From the NCBI RefSeq assembly GCF_045037415.1, contig NZ_CP173438.1: DNA of 64,000 nucleotides. The stretch is one strand, 5' to 3'. This DNA comes from Escherichia coli (lineage in GTDB: Bacteria > Pseudomonadota > Gammaproteobacteria > Enterobacterales > Enterobacteriaceae). Made by a program: the position numbers and the translations under genes. Positions 4,694-56,236 of this stretch are shown here, piece by piece (the first letter of the stretch is position 1; the number at the start of each line of letters is the position of its first letter). A model generated the notes under the pieces. The model worked only from the letters and a program-made list of their open reading frames with translations. It was not told where the DNA came from and searched no databases.

Positions 4694-6952
4694 ATGAGCG
4701 ATATGGCAGAGCGCCTTGCGCTACATGAATTTACGGAAAACGCCTACTTAAACTACTCCATGTACGTGATCATGGACCGTGCGTTGCCGTTTATTGGTGA
4801 TGGTCTGAAACCTGTTCAGCGCCGCATTGTGTATGCGATGTCTGAGCTGGGCCTGAATGCCAGCGCCAAATTTAAAAAATCGGCCCGTACCGTCGGTGAC
4901 GTACTGGGTAAATACCATCCGCACGGCGATATTGCCTGTTATGTAGCGATGGTCCTGATGGCGCAGCCGTTCTCTTACCGTTATCCGCTGGTTGATGGTC
5001 AGGGGAACTGGGGGGCGCCGGACGATCCGAAATCGTTCGCGGCAATGCGTTACACCGAATCCCGGTTGTCGAAATATTCCGAGCTGCTATTGAGCGAGCT
5101 GGGGCAGGGGACGGCTGACTGGGTGCCAAACTTCGACGGCACTTTGCAGGAGCCGAAAATGCTGCCTGCCCGTCTGCCAAACATTTTGCTTAACGGCACC
5201 ACCGGTATTGCCGTCGGCATGGCGACCGATATTCCACCGCATAACCTGCGTGAAGTGGCTCAGGCGGTAATTGCCTTAATCGACCAGCCGAAAACCACGC
5301 TCGATCAGCTGCTGGATATCGTGCAGGGGCCGGATTATCCGACTGAAGCGGAAATTATCACTTCGCGCGCCGAGATTCGTAAAATCTACGAGAACGGACG
5401 TGGTTCAGTGCGTATGCGCGCGGTTTGGAAGAAGGAAGATGGCGCGGTGGTTATCAGCGCATTGCCGCATCAGGTTTCAGGTGCGCGCGTACTGGAGCAA
5501 ATTGCTGCGCAAATGCGCAACAAAAAGCTGCCGATGGTTGACGATCTGCGCGATGAATCTGACCACGAGAACCCGACCCGTCTGGTGATTGTGCCGCGTT
5601 CCAACCGCGTGGATATGGATCAGGTGATGAACCACCTCTTTGCTACCACCGATCTGGAAAAGAGCTATCGCATTAACCTCAATATGATCGGTCTGGATGG
5701 TCGTCCGGCGGTGAAAAACCTGCTGGAAATCCTCTCCGAATGGCTGGTGTTCCGCCGCGATACCGTGCGCCGCCGACTGAACTATCGTCTGGAGAAAGTT
5801 CTCAAGCGCCTGCATATCCTCGAAGGTTTGCTGGTGGCGTTTCTCAATATCGACGAAGTGATTGAGATCATTCGTAATGAAGATGAACCGAAACCGGCGC
5901 TGATGTCGCGGTTTGGCCTTACGGAAACCCAGGCGGAAGCGATCCTCGAACTGAAACTGCGTCATCTTGCCAAACTGGAAGAGATGAAGATTCGCGGTGA
6001 GCAGAGTGAGCTGGAAAAAGAGCGCGACCAGTTGCAGGGCATTTTGGCTTCCGAGCGTAAAATGAATAACCTGCTGAAGAAAGAACTGCAGGCAGACGCG
6101 CAAGGCTACGGTGACGAACGTCGTTCGCCGTTGCATGAACGCGAAGAAGCGAAAGCGATGAGCGAGCACGACATGCTGCCGTCTGAACCTGTCACCATTG
6201 TGCTGTCGCAGATGGGCTGGGTACGCAGCGCTAAAGGCCATGATATCGACGCGCCGGGCCTGAATTATAAAGCGGGTGATAGCTTCAAAGCGGCGGTGAA
6301 AGGTAAGAGCAACCAACCGGTAGTGTTTGTTGATTCCACCGGTCGTAGCTATGCCATCGACCCGATTACGCTGCCGTCGGCGCGTGGTCAGGGCGAGCCG
6401 CTCACCGGCAAATTAACGTTGCCGCCTGGAGCGACCGTTGACCATATGCTGATGGAAAGCGACGATCAGAAACTGCTGATGGCTTCCGATGCGGGTTACG
6501 GTTTCGTCTGCACCTTTAACGATCTGGTGGCGCGTAACCGTGCAGGTAAGGCTTTGATCACCTTACCGGAAAATGCCCATGTTATGCCGCCGGTGGTGAT
6601 TGAAGATGCTTCCGATATGCTGCTGGCAATCACTCAGGCAGGCCGTATGTTGATGTTCCCGGTAAGCGATCTGCCGCAGCTGTCGAAGGGCAAAGGCAAC
6701 AAGATTATCAACATTCCATCGGCAGAAGCCGCGCGTGGCGAGGATGGCCTGGCGCAACTGTACGTTCTGCCGCCGCAAAGCACGCTGACCATTCATGTTG
6801 GGAAACGCAAAATTAAACTGCGTCCGGAAGAGCTACAGAAAGTCACTGGCGAACGTGGACGCCGCGGTACGTTGATGCGCGGTTTGCAGCGTATCGATCG
6901 TGTTGAGATCGACTCTCCTCGCCGTGCCAGCAGCGGTGATAGCGAAGAGTAA
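4694..6952 (+). CDS. parC: DNA topoisomerase IV subunit A
   Basis: 752-aa [35 protein letters not shown]... with the GyrA/ParC N-terminal motifs. Confidence 0.97.
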
Positions 6953-9411: not shown

Positions 9412-9422
9412 TGGACCAATTC

Positions 9423-9448
9423 AATGCCCCACAGAGTGGTGGGGCATT
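9423..9448 (+). terminator. Stem-loop immediately downstream of ftsP (putative terminator)
   Basis: AATGCCCCAC-AGAGTG-GTGGGGCATT, perfect 10-bp inverted repeat 12 nt after the ftsP stop; no strong T-run follows. Confidence 0.5.
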
Positions 9449-9481
9449 GAAAATTACTCAGTATGCAGTCTTCATTGTGTA

Positions 9482-19426: not shown

Positions 19427-19431
19427 AAAAT

Positions 19432-19466
19432 ATCCCCGGTAACAGAATGCTGCCGGGGATTTTTTT
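19432..19466. terminator. Bidirectional rho-independent terminator between convergent ygiQ and yqhH
   Basis: ATCCCCGGTAACAGAATGCTGCCGGGGAT followed by TTTTTTT on the + strand and preceded by an A-run, so it also serves the minus-strand yqhH. Confidence 0.8.
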
Positions 19467-19467
19467 A

Positions 19468-24090: not shown

Positions 24091-24129
24091 ATACGTTCCC
24101 GGTACAGCAACCGGGAACGGGGAAAATCG

Positions 24130-27534: not shown

Positions 27535-27539
27535 AAATG

Positions 27540-27574
27540 ATGCCCGGTTGCTTTTCACAACCGGGCATTTTTTT
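27540..27574. terminator. Bidirectional rho-independent terminator between exbD and yghA
   Basis: GCCCGGTTG-CTTTTCA-CAACCGGGC followed by a T-run; the minus-strand yghA stop abuts it. Confidence 0.8.
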
Positions 27575-29142: not shown

Positions 29143-29181
29143 TCTGATTCGGGCGCGGTTCTCGCGCCCGTTATTAACAGG

Positions 29182-38406: not shown

Positions 38407-38414
38407 TGATTAAA

Positions 38415-38447
38415 GCCGGATGCGGCGTAAATGCTTTATCCGGCTAC
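38415..38447. repeat. REP (repetitive extragenic palindrome) element downstream of hybG
   Basis: GCCGGATGCGGCGTAAATGCTTTATCCGGCTAC closely matches the enterobacterial REP consensus. Confidence 0.75.
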
Positions 38448-38475
38448 ATAGCGATAAGCCTGCCAATGTTGCGAC

Positions 38476-43197: not shown

Positions 43198-43245
43198 CCT
43201 TCCTGAAAATGCCCGGTCCTGGCGATCGGGCATTTCCATTTTTGA

Positions 43246-45675: not shown

Positions 45676-47025
45676 TTGGCGGGTTTTAACATCAAACATT
45701 GGTTTGCAGATGGCGCGTTTCGCACCATTATTCGCAATAGCGCCTGGTTAGGCTCCAGTAATGTCGTGAGCGCTTTACTGGGTCTGTTGGCGCTCTCGTG
45801 TGCCGGTAAAGGGATGACGCCCGCCATGTTTGGCGTACTGGTGATTGTACAATCGTACGCCAAGTCGATCAGCGATTTTATTAAGTTTCAGATATGGCAG
45901 CTGGTGGTTCAGTACGGAACACCAGCATTAACCAACAATAATCCGCAGCAATTCCGCAATGTCGTCTCATTTTCCTTCTCGCTGGATATCGTCAGCGGCG
46001 CGGTGGCGATTGTCGGCGGCATTGCCTTACTCCCTTTTCTTTCCCATTCATTAGGTCTGGATGACCAAAGCTTTTGGCTGGCAGCGCTGTATTGCACGCT
46101 CATTCCTTCAATGGCTTCCTCCACGCCGACCGGCATTCTGCGTGCGGTAGATCGCTTCGATCTAATTGCTGTACAGCAAGCGACGAAACCTTTTCTGCGC
46201 GCAGCGGGGAGCGTCGTAGCCTGGTATTTTGACTTTGGTTTTGCGGGTTTTGTTATTGCCTGGTACGTGTCGAATCTGGTTGGCGGCACCATGTACTGGT
46301 GGTTTGCCGCGCGCGAATTACGCCGCAGAAATATCCATAACGCCTTCAAATTGAATCTGTTTGAGTCTGCCCGACACATTAAAGGCGCGTGGAGTTTTGT
46401 CTGGTCAACCAACATTGCCCACTCCATCTGGTCGGCGCGTAACTCGTGCAGCACAGTGCTGGTGGGGATCGTGTTAGGACCCGCTGCCGCCGGGTTATTT
46501 AAAATCGCCATGACATTCTTCGACGCCGCCGGAACGCCAGCGGGTTTACTGGGCAAAAGTTTTTACCCAGAGGTGATGCGTTTAGATCCGCGCACCACCA
46601 GACCGTGGTTGTTAGGCGTGAAGTCAGGTTTACTGGCGGGCGGAATTGGTATTCTGGTGGCGCTCGCGGTGTTGATCGTCGGCAAGCCGCTTATTTCGCT
46701 GGTGTTTGGCGTTAAGTATCTCGAAGCGTATGACCTGATTCAGGTGATGCTGGGCGCAATTGTGATTTCGATGCTGGGCTTCCCACAGGAGTCATTGCTA
46801 TTGATGGCGGGAAAACAGCGCGCTTTTCTCGTGGCGCAAACCATCGCCTCAATCGGCTACATCGTATTGCTGTTCATGTTCTGTCATCTGTTTGGCGTGC
46901 TGGGAGCAGCGTTTGCTTATTTCGGTGGGCAATGTCTGGATGTGGTGCTCTCGTTAATTCCGACCTTAAAGGCATTTTTTCAGCGCCATTCCTTGCTTTA
47001 TAACGCAGCCGGAGAGAAATCCTGA
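45676..47025 (+). CDS. yghQ: MOP-superfamily (Wzx-like) polytopic membrane protein YghQ; start uncertain
   Basis: 449-aa track ORF beginning at TTG 45676 with AAGG 9 nt upstream; highly hydrophobic multi-TM protein. Stop overlaps the start of the next gene (TGATG). Confidence 0.75.
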   Translation: MAGFNIKHWFADGAFRTIIRNSAWLGSSNVVSALLGLLALSCAGKGMTPAMFGVLVIVQSYAKSISDFIKFQIWQLVVQYGTPALTNNNPQQFRNVVSFSFSLDIVSGAVAIVGGIALLPFLSHSLGLDDQSFWLAALYCTLIPSMASSTPTGILRAVDRFDLIAVQQATKPFLRAAGSVVAWYFDFGFAGFVIAWYVSNLVGGTMYWWFAARELRRRNIHNAFKLNLFESARHIKGAWSFVWSTNIAHSIWSARNSCSTVLVGIVLGPAAAGLFKIAMTFFDAAGTPAGLLGKSFYPEVMRLDPRTTRPWLLGVKSGLLAGGIGILVALAVLIVGKPLISLVFGVKYLEAYDLIQVMLGAIVISMLGFPQESLLLMAGKQRAFLVAQTIASIGYIVLLFMFCHLFGVLGAAFAYFGGQCLDVVLSLIPTLKAFFQRHSLLYNAAGEKS

Positions 47026-47849
47026 TGATGAGAAAATATTTCCCGCTTGAGGCGAGCGAGCGTTTATTTGTTGCAGTTGAAGAAGATGATGTCGTTGATG
47101 CACAGGTCAGTTTGCCGCCGACTATCGCACTAAGTTGTACCACCGAAATCATCCATGATAATTACGCGTTATGCCTGCAATTCTGGCTCAATGGCGTCAA
47201 TCGCCAGGAGTTACTGCGTTTAATATGCAAACAGGCCAAAGGCGATGAGCTGACTGCTGATGAGCGCAAACAATTTAAATACATGCGAGCGCGCTACAAG
47301 CACCTGCGTTTTGCGCAACGGCTGTATTTAAAGAAGCATCAGGCCGGATTTTTATTCGGCAAAACGACCGTTTTTTTGGGGCGTTTTCAGGACGGTTTTC
47401 GTAACGGTAAGAAAAATATTGTGTCGTATTACGGCAACTTGTTACGGGTTTATTTAAGCTCTCCGGTCTGGTCGTTGGTGAACTATTCATTACGCCATAG
47501 CCAGTTAGAAAGCGTAAGCGGTTTTATTGCCTATCGGCAAAAGCAAATGCATACCCTGAAAGAGATAATTGCCAAACCGCGACTCACCGGCAGGGAATTT
47601 CATGATGTGCGAAAAATCATCAGCCAGCAGGTTTCTTATTACGACACCTTAAGATCGCTTGATCCTGAAAATAAAGAGGCGTTACAGATTTCCCGCTTCC
47701 TCGCCGCCATTAATGGCCTGATGGGGGATAAACACGACGACATGGTGGCGGATGATATGGAAAACCGCCAGTCGTATGATGCACCGGTGGCGCTGGATAG
47801 CGATATTCGCCAGCGCTTAGAGCTGCTGATTTCGCGTTTTCCGCTATAA
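47025..47849 (+). CDS. Hypothetical soluble protein, no recognisable family
   Basis: 274-aa ORF MMRKYFPLEASERLFVAVEEDD...; coding assignment rests on length, coupling to yghQ (1-nt overlap) and operon context. Confidence 0.6.
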   Translation: MMRKYFPLEASERLFVAVEEDDVVDAQVSLPPTIALSCTTEIIHDNYALCLQFWLNGVNRQELLRLICKQAKGDELTADERKQFKYMRARYKHLRFAQRLYLKKHQAGFLFGKTTVFLGRFQDGFRNGKKNIVSYYGNLLRVYLSSPVWSLVNYSLRHSQLESVSGFIAYRQKQMHTLKEIIAKPRLTGREFHDVRKIISQQVSYYDTLRSLDPENKEALQISRFLAAINGLMGDKHDDMVADDMENRQSYDAPVALDSDIRQRLELLISRFPL

Positions 47850-47857
47850 CCGGAGCA

Positions 47858-48421
47858 ATGATGTCATCTCGTTTGATTATTGCGCTGATTATCATGCTCT
47901 TAGCCCAGGGTGTGCAGGCACACAATTTTGTCACTGGCAAAACGGTTACCCCCGTTTATATCCAGGAAGGCGGCGAGCTGCTTCTGAATAGCGACGACGA
48001 AATTCACTACCAAAAGTGGAACAGCACACAGCTGGCGGGAAAAGTCCGCATTATCCAGTATATCGCCGGGCGTAAGTCGGCGAAGAAAAAGAACTCACTG
48101 TTAATTAAAGCGGTTGAAGCGGCAAACTTTCCGCAGGATCGTTTTCAGCCCACCACCATTGTGAACACCGATGATGCCATCTTTGGTACTGGCTATTTTG
48201 TCGTTGGCAAAATCGAAAAAAATAAACGCCGCTATCCGTGGGCGCAATTCGTTATTGACGGCAATGGACTGGGACGCGTTGCCTGGCGGTTGCCGGAGCA
48301 GAGTTCAACCATTCTGGTGCTGAATAAAGACGGGCAAATTCAGTGGGCAAAGGACGGCAGCCTGACGCCGGAAGAGGTAGATCATGTCATTGCGCTGGCG
48401 CAGAAACTGATCAATGAATAA
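47858..48421 (+). CDS. YtfJ-family periplasmic protein
   Basis: 187-aa ORF with signal peptide MMSSRLIIALIIMLLAQGVQA and GGAG Shine-Dalgarno; body resembles my recollection of YtfJ (QKWNS..LAGKVR..QYIAGR, TTIVNTDDAI, LNKDG..QWAKDG.LTPEEV). Confidence 0.65.
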   Translation: MMSSRLIIALIIMLLAQGVQAHNFVTGKTVTPVYIQEGGELLLNSDDEIHYQKWNSTQLAGKVRIIQYIAGRKSAKKKNSLLIKAVEAANFPQDRFQPTTIVNTDDAIFGTGYFVVGKIEKNKRRYPWAQFVIDGNGLGRVAWRLPEQSSTILVLNKDGQIQWAKDGSLTPEEVDHVIALAQKLINE

Positions 48422-48451
48422 AAAATTCAAAGGATTGAGGGTGTTAGTGAG

Positions 48452-49522
48452 ATGAAGCTGGTTGAACACTACATCATGCGTGGTACGCGCCGTCTGGTGC
48501 TGATTATCGTCGGTTTTCTGATCTTTATTTTCGCCAGCTACTCCGCACAGCGTTATCTGACCGAAGCGGCAAATGGGACCTTAGCTCTTGATGTTGTGCT
48601 GGATATCGTTTTCTACAAAGTGCTGATTGCACTGGAGATGTTGTTACCTGTTGGTCTGTATGTGTCAGTTGGCGTGACGCTAGGGCAGATGTATACCGAC
48701 TCGGAAATTACCGCTATCTCTGCGGCGGGGGGCAATCCGGGACGCTTGTACAAAGCCGTTCTTTATCTGGCGATACCGCTAAGTATTTTTGTCACCCTTC
48801 TGTCGATGTATGGTCGGCCGTGGGCTTATGCGCAGATTTATCAACTGGAGCAACAGTCGCAGTCGGAGCTGGATGTTCGCCAGTTGCGGGCAAAGAAATT
48901 TAACACTAACGATAACGGACGAATGATCCTTTCGCAGACGGTTGATCAGGATAATAATCGCCTGACTGACGCGCTGATTTATACTTCTACTGCCAATCGA
49001 ACCCGCATTTTCCGCGCCCGTTCGGTTGATGTGGTTGACCCATCACCTGAGAAACCGACCGTTATGTTGCATAACGGGACCGCCTATCTTCTCGATCATC
49101 AGGGGCGTGACGACAACGAACAGATCTACCGTAATCTGCAATTACATCTGAATCCGCTGGATCAAAGCCCTAACGTCAAACGCAAAGCAAAATCGGTCAC
49201 GGAGCTGGCGCGCTCAGCCTTTCCTGCCGATCATGCCGAACTGCAATGGCGACAAAGCCGTGGCCTGACAGCATTGTTGATGGCGCTGCTGGCCATTTCA
49301 TTAAGTCGGGTAAAACCGCGGCAAGGGCGATTTTCAACGTTATTGCCACTGACATTGCTGTTTGTTGCCATTTTTTATGGCGGCGACGTCTGCCGTACGC
49401 TGGTGGCTAACGGTGCGATTCCCCTCATTCCTGGTTTGTGGTTAGTACCCGGACTCATGCTAATGGGCCTGCTGATGCTGGTCGCACGCGACTTCTCTTT
49501 GCTGCAGAAATTTTCCCGATGA
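48452..49522 (+). CDS. LptF/LptG-family (YjgP/YjgQ) permease paralog
   Basis: 356-aa ORF: three N-terminal TM segments, a central soluble domain and C-terminal TM segments, the architecture of LPS-export permeases. Confidence 0.75.
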   Translation: MKLVEHYIMRGTRRLVLIIVGFLIFIFASYSAQRYLTEAANGTLALDVVLDIVFYKVLIALEMLLPVGLYVSVGVTLGQMYTDSEITAISAAGGNPGRLYKAVLYLAIPLSIFVTLLSMYGRPWAYAQIYQLEQQSQSELDVRQLRAKKFNTNDNGRMILSQTVDQDNNRLTDALIYTSTANRTRIFRARSVDVVDPSPEKPTVMLHNGTAYLLDHQGRDDNEQIYRNLQLHLNPLDQSPNVKRKAKSVTELARSAFPADHAELQWRQSRGLTALLMALLAISLSRVKPRQGRFSTLLPLTLLFVAIFYGGDVCRTLVANGAIPLIPGLWLVPGLMLMGLLMLVARDFSLLQKFSR

Positions 49523-50598
49523 ATGTTTTCAGTCGCTATTTAATCCGTCATCTCTTTCTCGGTTTTGCCGCCGCCGCAGGGCTATTGCTGCCGCTTTTTA
49601 CCACCTTCAACCTGATTAACGAACTGGATGATGTCAGCCCGGGCGGTTATCGCTGGACTCAGGCGGTGCTGGTGGTGCTGATGACCTTACCGCGTACACT
49701 GGTCGAACTTTCGCCGTTTATCGCATTATTGGGAGGGATTGTTGGCCTGGGGCAGTTATCGAAAAACAGTGAGCTTACCGCCATTCGCAGCACTGGGTTT
49801 TCTATCTTCCGTATTGCACTGGTGGCGCTGGTTGCCGGGATATTGTGGACTGTTTCGTTAGGCGCGATAGATGAGTGGGTGGCGTCGCCATTGCAGCAAC
49901 AGGCGCTGCAAATCAAATCGACTGCCACCGCGTTGGGGGAGGACGATGACATTACCGGCAATATGCTTTGGGCCAGGCGCGGTAATGAATTTGTGACGGT
50001 GAAATCGCTGAACGAGCAGGGCCAGCCTGTGGGCGTGGAGATATTTCATTATCGCGACGATCTCTCGCTCGAATCCTACATTTTTGCACGCAGTGCCTCC
50101 ATTGAAGACGACAAAACGTGGATCCTGCATGGTGTGAATCATAAAAAATGGTTGAATGGCAAAGAAACGCTGGAAACATCAGATAATCTTGCCTGGCAAT
50201 CGGCCTTCACCAGTATGGATCTTGAAGAGTTATCGATGCCGGGGAATACTTTTTCTGTCCGTCAGCTTAATCATTACATCCATTATTTGCAGGAAACCGG
50301 ACAACCCAGCAGCGAATACCGCCTTGCACTGTGGGAAAAACTGGGGCAACCGATCCTGACCCTGGCGATGATTTTGCTGGCTGTGCCGTTCACCTTTAGC
50401 GCCCCGCGCTCGCCAGGGATGGGTAGCCGTCTCGCTGTAGGCGTCATCGTTGGCTTACTCACCTGGATCAGCTATCAAATCATGGTCAATCTGGGATTGT
50501 TATTTGCGTTGAGCGCACCTGTTACCGCGCTCGGTTTACCGGTAGCGTTTGTGTTGGTGGCGTTGAGCCTGGTGTATTGGTATGACAGACAACATTAA
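49519..50598 (+). CDS. LptF/LptG-family (YjgP/YjgQ) permease paralog, LptG-like
   Basis: Track ORF 49438..50598; preferred start ATG at 49519 (MNVFSRYLIRHLFLGFAAAAGLLLPLFTTFNLINELDDV...) overlapping the upstream stop (ATGA). The N-terminus and LSKNSELTAIRSTGFS block parallel E. coli LptG. Confidence 0.78.
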   Translation: MNVFSRYLIRHLFLGFAAAAGLLLPLFTTFNLINELDDVSPGGYRWTQAVLVVLMTLPRTLVELSPFIALLGGIVGLGQLSKNSELTAIRSTGFSIFRIALVALVAGILWTVSLGAIDEWVASPLQQQALQIKSTATALGEDDDITGNMLWARRGNEFVTVKSLNEQGQPVGVEIFHYRDDLSLESYIFARSASIEDDKTWILHGVNHKKWLNGKETLETSDNLAWQSAFTSMDLEELSMPGNTFSVRQLNHYIHYLQETGQPSSEYRLALWEKLGQPILTLAMILLAVPFTFSAPRSPGMGSRLAVGVIVGLLTWISYQIMVNLGLLFALSAPVTALGLPVAFVLVALSLVYWYDRQH

Positions 50599-50632
50599 AC
50601 CCGCCGTGGCGCAACACCACAGCGGGCTCACA
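50599..50632. terminator. Stem-loop between the convergent LptG-like gene and the AOS-like gene
   Basis: CCCGCCGTGG-CGCAACA-CCACAGCGGG, imperfect 10-bp inverted repeat filling the 34-bp gap between two convergent stop codons. Confidence 0.45.
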
Positions 50633-51805
50633 TTACTGCTTCAGAGTAGCAAATGCCTGAATGATGGCATCGATTTGCTCACGACTGTGGGCAGCGTTTA
50701 CGCTACAGCGCAGCAGAGTGATGCCTGCAGGCGCGGCAGGTGGCAGGATAAGATTCACATAAACGCCCAGCGAAATAAGCTCGCGCCAGATGCGTAAACC
50801 TTCCTCTTTCGAACCGATTATTACTGGCACTACCGGGCTAATATGTGAACTTAACTCATAACCCAGTTTTTGCAGACCGTCATACAGATGGTTGGCGTTA
50901 TCCATCAGTTTTTGCCGCAGCTCTGGTTGTGTGGCAATGGTTCTTAACGACGAGCGCACGGTCGCAATGCAGGACGGAGAAGGAGAGGCGGTAAAAATAT
51001 ACGGGCGGCTGCCGTAGCGCAGCACTTCCATCGCTTCCGAACCGACAGCAAAACCGCCAATCGAGGCCAGACTTTTACTGAAAGTACCAACGATAATATC
51101 CACATCATCTTCAACGCCAACGGCTTCAGCCAGTCCGCGCCCCGTTGCGCCTAACACGCCAAACGAATGCGCTTCATCGACAATCAAATAACCACCGAGA
51201 CGACGTTTGATATCAACAATTTCCGCTAACGGCGCAACGTCACCGAGCATGCTGTAGATGCCCTCAACGATGATAATCGCCTCTTTCGCCCGTTCACCGA
51301 GGCGAACCATGCGCCGTTCCAGATCTTTAGCATCGTTATGGCGGAAACGAATAATTTCTGCGCCACCGAGAGAACAGGCGTCATAAATACTGGCGTGGCT
51401 GTCGGCATCCAGTAACACCACGGCGTTATGGTCGGCAAGTGCGCTGATGACGCCTAAATTAGCGGTATAACCGGTTGAAAAAACGATAGCGGTAGGGCGA
51501 TTGAAAAACTCGGCAATCTCTTTCTCTAACGCCAGGTGCGGCGCATAACTGCCGTTTGCCATACGAGAACCGGTGGTGCCGGTGCCTTGGGCCGCTAACG
51601 CTGCCTGACCTTCGGCGATGGCATCATGATTAAAGGTTAAACCGAGATAATTATTGGTCCCGGCCAGAATCACTTTTTTATTGCCGATCCGACCTTCGGT
51701 GGCGGAATACACTTCATCAATACAGGTGCCAAACGGTGTTAACCCGTTGTCACTAAATTGCAGTCGCTCGCCAGCAAGGCGCGCATATTTATCGTATAGC
51801 CCCAT
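50633..51805 (-). CDS. PLP-dependent alpha-oxoamine synthase (serine palmitoyltransferase / BioF / Kbl family)
   Basis: 390-aa ORF with VDEAHSFG and the PLP-lysine block GTFSKS; start ATG overlaps the ACP stop (TAATG). Confidence 0.85.
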   Translation of the reverse strand: MGLYDKYARLAGERLQFSDNGLTPFGTCIDEVYSATEGRIGNKKVILAGTNNYLGLTFNHDAIAEGQAALAAQGTGTTGSRMANGSYAPHLALEKEIAEFFNRPTAIVFSTGYTANLGVISALADHNAVVLLDADSHASIYDACSLGGAEIIRFRHNDAKDLERRMVRLGERAKEAIIIVEGIYSMLGDVAPLAEIVDIKRRLGGYLIVDEAHSFGVLGATGRGLAEAVGVEDDVDIIVGTFSKSLASIGGFAVGSEAMEVLRYGSRPYIFTASPSPSCIATVRSSLRTIATQPELRQKLMDNANHLYDGLQKLGYELSSHISPVVPVIIGSKEEGLRIWRELISLGVYVNLILPPAAPAGITLLRCSVNAAHSREQIDAIIQAFATLKQ

Positions 51806-52053
51806 TATTTATTCTCCAGCCATGGAAGTAGAGTTTCCATTAATTGCGCAGGGGTTTTGACATCCAGCAGAATATTAATAGGAATGGAAATATCGAATCT
51901 GTCTTCCAGCATCATTAAGAGATCCATCACTTTGATCGACTCCAGGCCAAGATCGTTGACGAGATCGCTGTCGGGCTTAATTTCCACACCGTTTTCGACC
52001 AAATCCTGTAAACAGGAAAGGATGTAATCCATTACTATTTCACGATTTACCAT
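51805..52053 (-). CDS. Acyl carrier protein
   Basis: 82-aa acidic protein with a phosphopantetheine-attachment-like DLGLESI motif. Confidence 0.75.
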   Translation of the reverse strand: MVNREIVMDYILSCLQDLVENGVEIKPDSDLVNDLGLESIKVMDLLMMLEDRFDISIPINILLDVKTPAQLMETLLPWLENK

Positions 52054-52084: not shown

Positions 52085-52999
52085 TCAAAATAGCCCGTTG
52101 CGTAATGCGTGTTCCAGGCTAATCCCGGGAAACCAATTAATATCTTCAGAAATACGGTTATTACTTGCCGACCAGTCGGCATGGGTTAATTCACGGATTT
52201 TCGAACGAGTCAGCATCGGTTCTTTACCCGCCAGACGGCTCAACGCGGTACTGATATCCGCAAGGCAGGTGAGTAGCGGCAGAGGAATACCGACCATCCG
52301 CACGGAACCACAGCGGACATCGGCAACAAGCTGTTGGACACGTTGCCAGTCATAGCCTCCGGCGACGCCATCGCATAATTCATAGGTTTGCGTCTGTACA
52401 GTTTCGGCGCTTAACCACTGACCCACTGCTTGCGCAAAATCGGTGACGTGCAGGAAAGAGAGCTGTGTCTCTGGCGTGCCAAGTCGTGGCAGCAGACCGC
52501 GCAGCATCCAGTCAAACAGCGGTTTTAACTCTTTATCGCCGGGACCATACACGGCTGTCGGGCGAAAAACGCCCAACGTAATTGCGTCAGCCATTGCAGT
52601 CAGCTGTTGTTCGGCGACGTGTTTGGAATTTGCGTACCAGGAGAGTTCGGGATGGCGCGCCGCCAGCGAAGAGATAAACAGAAATCGTTGGCAAAAGCCG
52701 CTCTCTTTTGCCGCTTGCATCAGGCGCAGGCTGCCGTCAACGTTGCAGCGGGTAAAAATCTCTTCTTTGTGCCCGCGCACTTGCCCGGCGCAATGGACCA
52801 CCGCGCTGGCTCCGGTAACCAGTTCGCTAAGCGAATGTGTATCTTCCAGCGAACCGCGCACCCAAGTGAGATTATCATTGACGTGAGCGCGGGCAGTACG
52901 CGTCAATGCGCGAACGTGAAAGCCGCGGGCGAGCAGGTTATCAATAATATATTTACCGATAAACCCGGTAGCGCCCGTCACCGCGACAGTTTGATTCAT
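52085..52999 (-). CDS. NAD(P)-dependent epimerase/dehydratase-family (extended SDR) reductase
   Basis: 304-aa ORF with Rossmann VTGATGFIG and catalytic YxxxK (YANSK); start ATG overlaps the upstream stop (ATGA). Confidence 0.82.
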   Translation of the reverse strand: MNQTVAVTGATGFIGKYIIDNLLARGFHVRALTRTARAHVNDNLTWVRGSLEDTHSLSELVTGASAVVHCAGQVRGHKEEIFTRCNVDGSLRLMQAAKESGFCQRFLFISSLAARHPELSWYANSKHVAEQQLTAMADAITLGVFRPTAVYGPGDKELKPLFDWMLRGLLPRLGTPETQLSFLHVTDFAQAVGQWLSAETVQTQTYELCDGVAGGYDWQRVQQLVADVRCGSVRMVGIPLPLLTCLADISTALSRLAGKEPMLTRSKIRELTHADWSASNNRISEDINWFPGISLEHALRNGLF

Positions 53000-54744
53000 G
53001 CCAGGGACTCCTGCACATGAAGACTGGCAGCATAAGCCTTCTGATAACGTTTTTTCGCTTCCGCACGGGCAGGCTTGCCGGAGGATGTTCGGGGAATACT
53101 GTGGGGCGGCAACAGATCGATATCCGCGGTAACGCCAAATTCGCTTTGGATCCGTGCTGCCAGCGCGTGGATAAGCTGCCCGCGACGTTCTTCATCGCTG
53201 ATCCGACACTGGATCTGCAAAATGATTTTTTCCTGGGCGGTAACAAAAGCAATCGCATCGCCAGAATGAATTTCCGGTTCCTGTTCCGCAATATATTCAA
53301 TATCCTGCGGCCAGATATTACGGCCACGAATAATAATCAGATCTTTAATGCGTCCGGTGACATACAGATAACCGTCCAGCAGATAACCGAGGTCGCCGGT
53401 GTCTAACCAGCCCGTCGCGGCAATCTCGTCTTGTGAAATCTGGTCGCCAAAGTAACCGCTCATCAGGCTAGGGCCGGAGATGCAAATATGGCCTACCACA
53501 CGTTCCGCGACAGGTATACCTGCTTCATTGCGGATTTCAATGCCATGTTCCGGCAACGCTTTACCGCAGTTGACGAAAGTCGATACGGCGCGTGTTTCAG
53601 CACCCGGCGCGACGGCTTTACCCTGGTATTCGAGGATGTCGCGATCCACTTCGTTAACCACAACCCCGGAAGCTTCATCAGAGAAGCTGACAGCCAGCGC
53701 ATTTTCTGCCAGTCCGTAGCACGGCATGAAAGTTTTATCGTCAAAGTTGACCTGACGGAAACATTCAGCGAATTGATGGAGTTGTTCTGCGGAGATGGGT
53801 TCTGCACCAATACCAGCGACGCGCCAGCAGGAAAGATCCAGTTCAGCGAGATCTTTTTCATTCACGCGGCGCTGGCACAATTCATAGCCAAACGGCGGCG
53901 CAACGGAAACGGTGCCGCGATTTTTACTGATCAATTTAAGCCATTGCAGAGGACGCATGGCAAAATCCTGAGTGCGCAAATAATCTACTGAAAGCTGCGT
54001 GGCGACGGGGGTCAGGAGAAAGCCGACCAGTCCCATATCATGGTAGAAAGGCAGCCAGGAGACGCAGCGGTCGCCAGGGCGTAATTTAATCCCATCGTGG
54101 CTTATAGCACGTAGATTAGCCATCACTTCGCGGTGAGTAATGATAACGCCACGGGGAAAACGGGTGCTGCCGGAGGTGTACTGGAGGTAGGCGATATCGT
54201 TTGGAACTGGACGTTGAAGCGCAACATCGGCTTCCGGTAATGCCTTAAACCAGGCGTGGCTTAAAACATGTAATTCGGGATTGTTATGCGTCGCGGCATT
54301 GACCAGTGGCAACCACTCATCACCAGTGATAATGGCTGCGGGCTGGCAACTTGCCAGTAACCCCTGCAGTTTGGCGCTCCAGGAATCCCGCTGACCGACG
54401 CCCATTGGAATCGCCAACGGGACGGCGACTAAGCCGGCATACTGGCAGGCAAAAAAAGCCTCTACAAACCCGCTACTCGTTTCGGCAATCAGTGCCACGC
54501 GATCGCCTTTTTTCAGGTTCAGCGATAACAACCGCTTCGCACCAGCTTCGGCACGCGCTTTTAACGTCTGATATTCCAGTTGATCTTCAAGTTGGCAACG
54601 TCTGTCATAAAAATTCATTCCAGCGCTACTCAGAGCGGCATAGTCCAAAGCATCAACCAGCGTTGGAAAATCGGCATAGCGCATAGGTAGGGAATGCGTA
54701 AAGATTTTATTAGACATATACACCACGAAAAAATTGGATATCAA
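52996..54744 (-). CDS. Fatty acyl-AMP ligase / acyl-ACP synthetase (AMP-dependent synthetase family); start uncertain
   Basis: Track ORF starts at TTG 54744; an in-frame ATG at 54717 (MSNKIF...) is the alternative. AMP-binding core YTSGSTRFPRGV and a C-terminal ...SGKPAR... block. Confidence 0.82.
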   Translation of the reverse strand: MISNFFVVYMSNKIFTHSLPMRYADFPTLVDALDYAALSSAGMNFYDRRCQLEDQLEYQTLKARAEAGAKRLLSLNLKKGDRVALIAETSSGFVEAFFACQYAGLVAVPLAIPMGVGQRDSWSAKLQGLLASCQPAAIITGDEWLPLVNAATHNNPELHVLSHAWFKALPEADVALQRPVPNDIAYLQYTSGSTRFPRGVIITHREVMANLRAISHDGIKLRPGDRCVSWLPFYHDMGLVGFLLTPVATQLSVDYLRTQDFAMRPLQWLKLISKNRGTVSVAPPFGYELCQRRVNEKDLAELDLSCWRVAGIGAEPISAEQLHQFAECFRQVNFDDKTFMPCYGLAENALAVSFSDEASGVVVNEVDRDILEYQGKAVAPGAETRAVSTFVNCGKALPEHGIEIRNEAGIPVAERVVGHICISGPSLMSGYFGDQISQDEIAATGWLDTGDLGYLLDGYLYVTGRIKDLIIIRGRNIWPQDIEYIAEQEPEIHSGDAIAFVTAQEKIILQIQCRISDEERRGQLIHALAARIQSEFGVTADIDLLPPHSIPRTSSGKPARAEAKKRYQKAYAASLHVQESLA

Positions 54745-56230: not shown

Positions 56231-56236
56231 TGGCAG

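Follow-up and report, generated by a model that had tools for sequence, protein, structure and literature searches.

Bidirectional terminators located between convergent genes have been described in Escherichia coli (preprint 10.1101/2022.10.23.513370). According to the summary of Ju et al. 2019 given in this preprint, these elements act through hairpin-induced pausing together with collisions between RNA polymerases (RNAP), a likeness to intrinsic terminators not being required. In bidirectional intrinsic terminators, an A-rich tract placed before the stem is the characteristic feature (PMC12207403).

The junction considered here lies at the end of a sphingolipid (dihydroceramide) cluster published for E. 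coli B/BL21, which is formed by aasR-epi-acpR-spt (ECD_02851-02854) and yghO, the whole cluster corresponding to ECD_02850-02854 (PMC9386255). LptF and LptG are unmentioned in the paper describing this cluster (PMC9386255).

Gene context of the junction

The window, that is, the whole stretch of 64 kb that was analysed, is a segment of E. coli chromosome which, in the region that was compared, shares 100% identity with strains 4/1-1 and FXCREC145. The spt/lptG-like junction is found in the gss-pitB-yghT-yghS-yghR ... yghO-glcC region, where two strings of genes face each other:

45676-47025, + strand: MOP-type flippase, first gene of the + string
47025-47849, + strand: hypothetical protein of 274 aa, without Pfam match
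47861-48421, + strand: YtfJ-family protein
48452-49522, + strand: lptF-like permease
49519-50598, + strand: lptG-like permease, last gene of the + string (Pfam PF03739; PGAP annotation of a 100% identical genome)
50633-51805, - strand: spt (serine palmitoyltransferase), last gene of the - string (Pfam, PGAP annotation and published BL21 cluster)
51805-52053, - strand: acpR, next to spt
52085-52999, - strand: epi
52996-54684, - strand: aasR, first gene of the - string

The spacing between genes within each string ranges from -4 to +45 nt, which fits an organisation in two convergent operons. The + string (45676-50598) places paralogues of the LPS permease components LptF and LptG (named lptF and lptG by PGAP) convergently to genes for sphingolipid synthesis, and alongside them the MOP-type flippase, the YtfJ-family protein and the 274-aa protein. 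These five genes are candidate components of a system for sphingolipid export.

Distribution of the locus in E. coli

A query of 2.1 kb across the lptG-like/spt junction (window positions 49600-51700) is matched by 4133 of the 5426 complete E. coli genomes. The sphingolipid cluster is present in about three quarters of the complete genomes, including BL21, and absent from about one quarter, including K-12. In K-12 MG1655 (NC_000913.3, 3129043-3132408), an IS5 element (insH9) is found between yghO and a shortened (truncated) yghQ, and eight genes, from the flippase end to aasR, are missing together with the hairpin described below. Most of the E. coli 3'-end maps that were found come from K-12 and, since this strain lacks the locus, such datasets cannot cover the hairpin site; in the literature on the BL21 locus tags and on Term-seq, no transcript or 3'-end report for this site was found. 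The locus tags led only to the biochemical paper describing the cluster and to two versions of a CRISPRi study on fatty acids in which ECD_02854 is named once, and Term-seq led only to papers on termination in general.

Another internal deletion is carried by E. coli KSC64 (locus L065, 6001-6481), in which the 5' part of the lptG-like gene is fused to the 5' part of aasR. This deletion takes out the hairpin, spt, acpR and epi, and what remains of the two genes is annotated as pseudogenes. The E. coli spt/lptG-like junction was also detected in a contig of 273 bp (NZ_VLXZ01000209.1; coverage ~1.5) belonging to the assembly of Alkalicoccobacillus porphyridii (Bacillales). The C-terminus of Spt encoded there is 100% identical to that of E. 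coli, and that of the lptG-like product is 97.6% identical; the contig looks like E. coli DNA contaminating the Alkalicoccobacillus assembly.

A hairpin fills the intergenic gap

The TAA stop codon of the lptG-like gene is located at 50596-50598 (+ strand), and that of spt at 50633-50635 (TTA on the + strand). An earlier note on this DNA had placed between them a gap of 34 nt (50599-50632), the sole non-coding sequence separating the two stops, and had described in it an imperfect hairpin with a stem of 10 bp. The coordinates of the gap are exact, and a hairpin answering to this description was found on the + strand, with helices of 5 and 4 bp on the two sides of a C·A mismatch and a loop of 7 nt. 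The stronger fold that the same repeat adopts on the - strand was overlooked in that note. The elements of the junction are the following:

50600-50626, - strand: core hairpin, reading CCCGCUGUGGUG-UUG-CGCCACGGCGGG, with 12 bp (13 with a flanking G·U pair) and a 3-nt loop
50589-50599, - strand: interrupted U-tract UUUAAUGUUGU, which in the spt sense follows the stem directly on its 3' side, with a T-score of 3.03
50596-50630, - strand: extended stem of 16 pairs, the top match of the terminator scan, with an RNAalifold consensus of -29.8 kcal/mol
50600-50626, + strand: the palindrome in the lptG-like sense (5+4 bp, C·A mismatch, 7-nt loop), followed by CUCACAUUACUGC, with no U-tract

On the other strand, the U-tract overlaps the end of the lptG-like gene, namely its stop codon and its last two codons. 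The extended stem is lengthened by weak A-U and G-U pairs, in which nucleotides immediately behind the spt stop pair with the first ones of the U-tract.

The folding energy calculation that the earlier note had suggested as a check was carried out for both strands. In the lptG-like sense the gap folds with -15.7 kcal/mol (z = -2.7; 3 of 200 shuffled sequences were equally stable), and in the spt sense with -24.3 kcal/mol (z = -4.6), through 13 uninterrupted pairs (including three G·U) closed by the 3-nt UUG loop. As background, every second 34-nt window of the 64 kb was folded on both strands, giving 63,968 folds, among which the - strand hairpin is the most stable of all (-26.1 kcal/mol at 50597), while the + strand hairpin ranks in the top 0.46%. 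The inverted repeat at 50599-50632 exceeds chance expectation, and the structure is real.

Hairpins of this kind are common where genes of the window face each other. According to the annotation of the identical genome, there are nine convergent junctions:

9412-9481, 19427-19467, 24091-24129, 27535-27572, 29143-29181, 38407-38475, 43198-43245, 50599-50632 and 56231-56236

In eight of them, a single hairpin, with an energy of about -15 to -24 kcal/mol, occupies a spacer of 34-70 nt, and in most of these eight one direction outscores the other. At the ninth, yghO><glcC, only 6 nt separate the genes and there is no comparable hairpin. The spt/lptG-like junction is thus a typical member of this set. 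The hairpin at 38413-38446 (+ strand), in the gap from hybG to yghU, contains GCCGGATGCGGCG, which we take to resemble the REP consensus, and in this it contrasts with the hairpin next to spt, which is single-copy.

Strand asymmetry and terminator features

The stem read in the lptG-like sense is the weaker one because the G·U pairs of the spt-sense RNA turn into A·C mismatches on the opposite strand. The asymmetry extends to the tails. In the spt sense, the GC-rich stem of 12-13 bp (9 G-C; -22 to -24 kcal/mol) has the form of an intrinsic-terminator stem (GC-rich, at least 4-5 bp, loop of 3-13 nt), it starts 6 nt past the stop codon of the last gene of aasR-epi-acpR-spt (0-1 nt in the case of the extended stem), and it is followed by UUUAAUGUUGU, a U-tract that is interrupted and weaker than that of a model terminator. 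In the lptG-like sense, the stem starts 1 nt past the stop and is followed by CUCACAUUACUGC, with a T-score of 0.69. A U-tract serving this second direction would be seen, in the spt sense, as an A-tract preceding the stem, and no such tract is present there.

Scanning of 45-57 kb for terminators, with a tail rule of at least 5 T in 8 that UUUAAUGUUGU satisfies, ranked the - strand site first (16 pairs, 9 of them G-C, T-rich tail), and gave no + strand site at the hairpin and none between 50.6 and 52.8 kb. In the spt sense, a d'Aubenton-Carafa-type score, which is only a rough guide, since the 1990 formula was newly implemented and combined with modern energy parameters, was +16.9 (window allele) and +24.7 (common E. 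coli allele); in the lptG-like sense, these alleles scored -52 and -30, respectively. The trp terminator, used as a control, reached +36, with a T-score of 5.1 as against 3.03 for the spt-sense tract.

Taking into account its structure, strand asymmetry, conservation and position, all of which are directly observed, the inverted repeat is probably the Rho-independent (intrinsic) terminator of the aasR-epi-acpR-spt operon. Thus, an RNA polymerase leaving spt would transcribe the GC-rich stem of 12-13 bp with its UUG loop and, directly afterwards, the interrupted U-tract UUUAAUGUUGU; once the hairpin had formed within the exit channel for RNA, the transcript would be released owing to the weakness of the rU-dA hybrid. 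The 3' stem-loop left on the spt mRNA would then shield it from 3' exonucleases. Given the size of ribosome footprints, a ribosome halted at the stop codon of spt or of the lptG-like gene would mask the 5' arm of the stem, and the hairpin would have to await ribosome release before folding. As the U-tract (UUU AA U G UU G U) is a short one with interruptions, the efficiency of the terminator may be moderate. In the lptG-like sense, the hairpin would be at most a 3' stabiliser or a pause site, and the facing operon would require another means of ending, either the action of Rho on untranslated antisense RNA or collision with polymerases coming from spt.

The earlier note had also proposed that the hairpin would act on the transcripts of both operons. 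A terminator role is well supported in the direction of spt; an equal action both ways is not, given the weaker stem on the + strand, its lack of a U-tract and its negative score. An effect on the lptG-like operon would be possible only if the hairpin served as a pause or collision site.

It is conceivable, although on balance doubtful, that the element is functionally bidirectional, so that the hairpin would pause polymerases arriving from both operons, and head-on plus trailing collisions would release both. This would predict overlapping 3' ends that insulate the two operons from each other, which is essentially the idea of the earlier note. Elements of this type are known between convergent E. 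coli genes, as mentioned above, and the present one also encodes a hairpin between a convergent pair, occupies the whole spacer and folds on both strands, also in the common allele (-20.8 kcal/mol on the + strand and -24.2 on the - strand). The hairpin-filled spacers at eight of the nine junctions of the window, and the stretch of 50.6-52.8 kb in which the terminator scan gave no + strand site, point the same way. However, there is neither a U-tract in the + sense nor, for the spt sense, an A-tract preceding the stem, the wobble pairs favour the RNA of the spt sense, and such a mechanism would require that both operons be transcribed jointly.

It seems unlikely that the hairpin is, beyond this, a collision or pause point coupling the synthesis operon (aasR-epi-acpR-spt) to the putative export operon, each limiting the 3' ends of the other. 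If it were, read-through from the weakly terminated + operon would generate antisense RNA against spt, and a joint of 34 nt would help to determine how synthesis and export of the lipid are balanced.

It is likewise improbable that the stem-loop works only as a stabiliser of RNA 3' ends, with transcription ending elsewhere (e.g., by Rho) and exonucleases trimming the transcripts back to it, so that it would set mRNA half-life. The stability of the stem on both strands is compatible with this role, as are the C-rich, G-poor stretches that lie downstream in both senses, with C/G ratios of 1.7-1.8 over the initial 117 nt of read-through in the spt sense and of 1.3-1.6 at +117 to +273 in the + sense, a composition that is weakly suggestive of Rho sites. 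Nevertheless, the spt-sense stem and its U-tract already have what is classically expected of a terminator, and the two roles are not exclusive.

Conservation in Escherichia

An alignment of ten Escherichia sequences was analysed, composed of six E. coli strains chosen across the identity range and of GTDB species representatives, including E. whittamii. In these sequences, 97.9% of the stem cells are paired, compared with 36-49% in controls with a slid register. Compensatory double changes occur at two stem pairs (C-G to U-A and G-C to A-U) and wobble-compatible single changes at five, and in nine of the ten sequences there is a U·G pair that can only form in the spt-sense RNA. For the consensus fold, energies of -29.8 (spt sense) and -20.4 kcal/mol (lptG-like sense) were obtained, and the TTTAATGTTG part of the U-tract is nearly invariant across Escherichia. 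The support from covariation is modest, the ten sequences being close relatives with one sequence behind each double change.

The C·A mismatch that makes the + strand hairpin imperfect is a minority allele, as eight of the ten sequences have C-G at that place, which results in a perfect + strand stem of 10 bp. Within E. coli, the loop (50610-50616) can be TTG, TTTG or CTG, and stem position 50621 shows a C/T change, by which a U·G pair arises in the spt sense. Of 4112 genomes, 670 carry the exact 47-nt allele of the window.

These data also bear on whether the repeat could work at the DNA level, as a dispersed REP/BIME repeat, a protein-binding palindrome, or a recombination scar joining acquired gene blocks. 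An imperfect palindrome located at the joint of two gene blocks, in a variable region absent from about one quarter of E. coli genomes, might recall such elements. This is, however, very improbable, as the substitutions preserve RNA pairing, including G·U pairs, which would be meaningless for a DNA palindrome, and the sequences found at the same place in other genera are unrelated, keeping only the ability to fold. The possibility of a dispersed repeat (REP/BIME) was rejected, since the hairpin occurs at one place per genome (median 1, maximum 2) in 4112 E. coli genomes. Scanning of 50300-50900 against Rfam 15 with a permissive E-value gave no relevant family, and only two chance-level matches elsewhere in the region (E > 1).

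Hairpins after spt in other genera

A scan of species-representative genomes with the Spt protein led to 56 loci. In Escherichia, Citrobacter, Pseudocitrobacter and Hafnia, spt is followed within about 100 nt by a convergent lptG-like gene, whose distance in Pluralibacter is about 0.8 kb; none was found within 4 kb of spt in Serratia, Sodalis, Mangrovibacter, Rosenbergiella, Pantoea or Pseudomonas.

By means of a sliding scan of 40 nt and direct folds, a hairpin of -15 kcal/mol or better was identified within 75 nt after the spt stop in 32 of the 33 gammaproteobacterial loci, the exception being Hafnia, which has a longer-range stem of 13 bp (-22.8 kcal/mol). In 23 of the 33, the hairpin ranks among the best 5% for the locus concerned. 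The sequences of these hairpins are unrelated between genera, and they are present with or without a convergent lptG-like gene, textbook terminators with A-tract, stem and U-tract following spt in Pantoea, Pluralibacter and Mangrovibacter. In Serratia sp. M24T3, there are two spt loci on two contigs, whose products are ~80% identical to the E. coli protein, and related CATGCTGC...GCAGCATG hairpins follow spt at both.

Since hairpins are also found after spt where nothing converges on it, the hairpin tracks the end of spt, not the convergence, which goes against a release of both polymerases by collision as its function. Its position and fold are kept while its sequence turns over, which is how terminators behave. 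The Pseudocitrobacter loci (L007, L009 and L012; ~5177-5216) are more favourable to an element acting on both operons. A hairpin occupies the gap from spt to the lptG-like gene, which measures ~45 nt in L007. Its energy is -30 to -31 kcal/mol in L007 and L012, and -20 to -23 in L009, the U-tract on either side is poor in most cases, and these hairpins resemble the hairpin-only bidirectional elements described for E. coli.

Significance and comparison with known systems

If the hairpin is the intrinsic terminator of aasR-epi-acpR-spt, the 3' limit of this operon within the sphingolipid cluster of E. coli is set by it, and the asymmetry of the junction suggests that the facing lptF/lptG-like operon is without a proper terminator of its own. 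This would be of use when parts of the locus are engineered or deleted, or when RNA-seq data are read across the junction. It brings nothing new to the understanding of termination, and its importance beyond annotation is small.

With the bidirectional terminators of Ju et al. 2019, as far as they are summarised in the preprint 10.1101/2022.10.23.513370, the spt structure shares a single hairpin in a short convergent spacer that folds on both strands, and one direction lacking the features of an intrinsic terminator. It differs from them in being clearly strand-biased, and overlapping 3' ends and a dependence on convergent transcription are, in its case, predictions.

The bidirectional terminators with A-tract, hairpin and U-tract are represented after spt in Pantoea sp. 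A4 and Pluralibacter, and in the window by the ygiQ><yqhH and exbD><yghA junctions. In these, runs of A precede the stem and runs of T follow it, whereas the spt hairpin of E. coli, found in the same position, has a T-rich tail on one side only.

The canonical intrinsic terminators of E. coli share with the spt hairpin a GC-rich stem, a short loop, a T-rich tail and a location immediately behind the final gene of an operon, as well as the turnover of sequence between genera with conservation of the fold. The spt hairpin departs from them in its interrupted U-tract, which overlaps the coding end of the facing gene, and in a stem lying no more than 6 nt from the stop codon. In sum, its structure and strand arrangement are the usual ones between facing genes of E. 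coli, as would be expected of an ordinary terminator.
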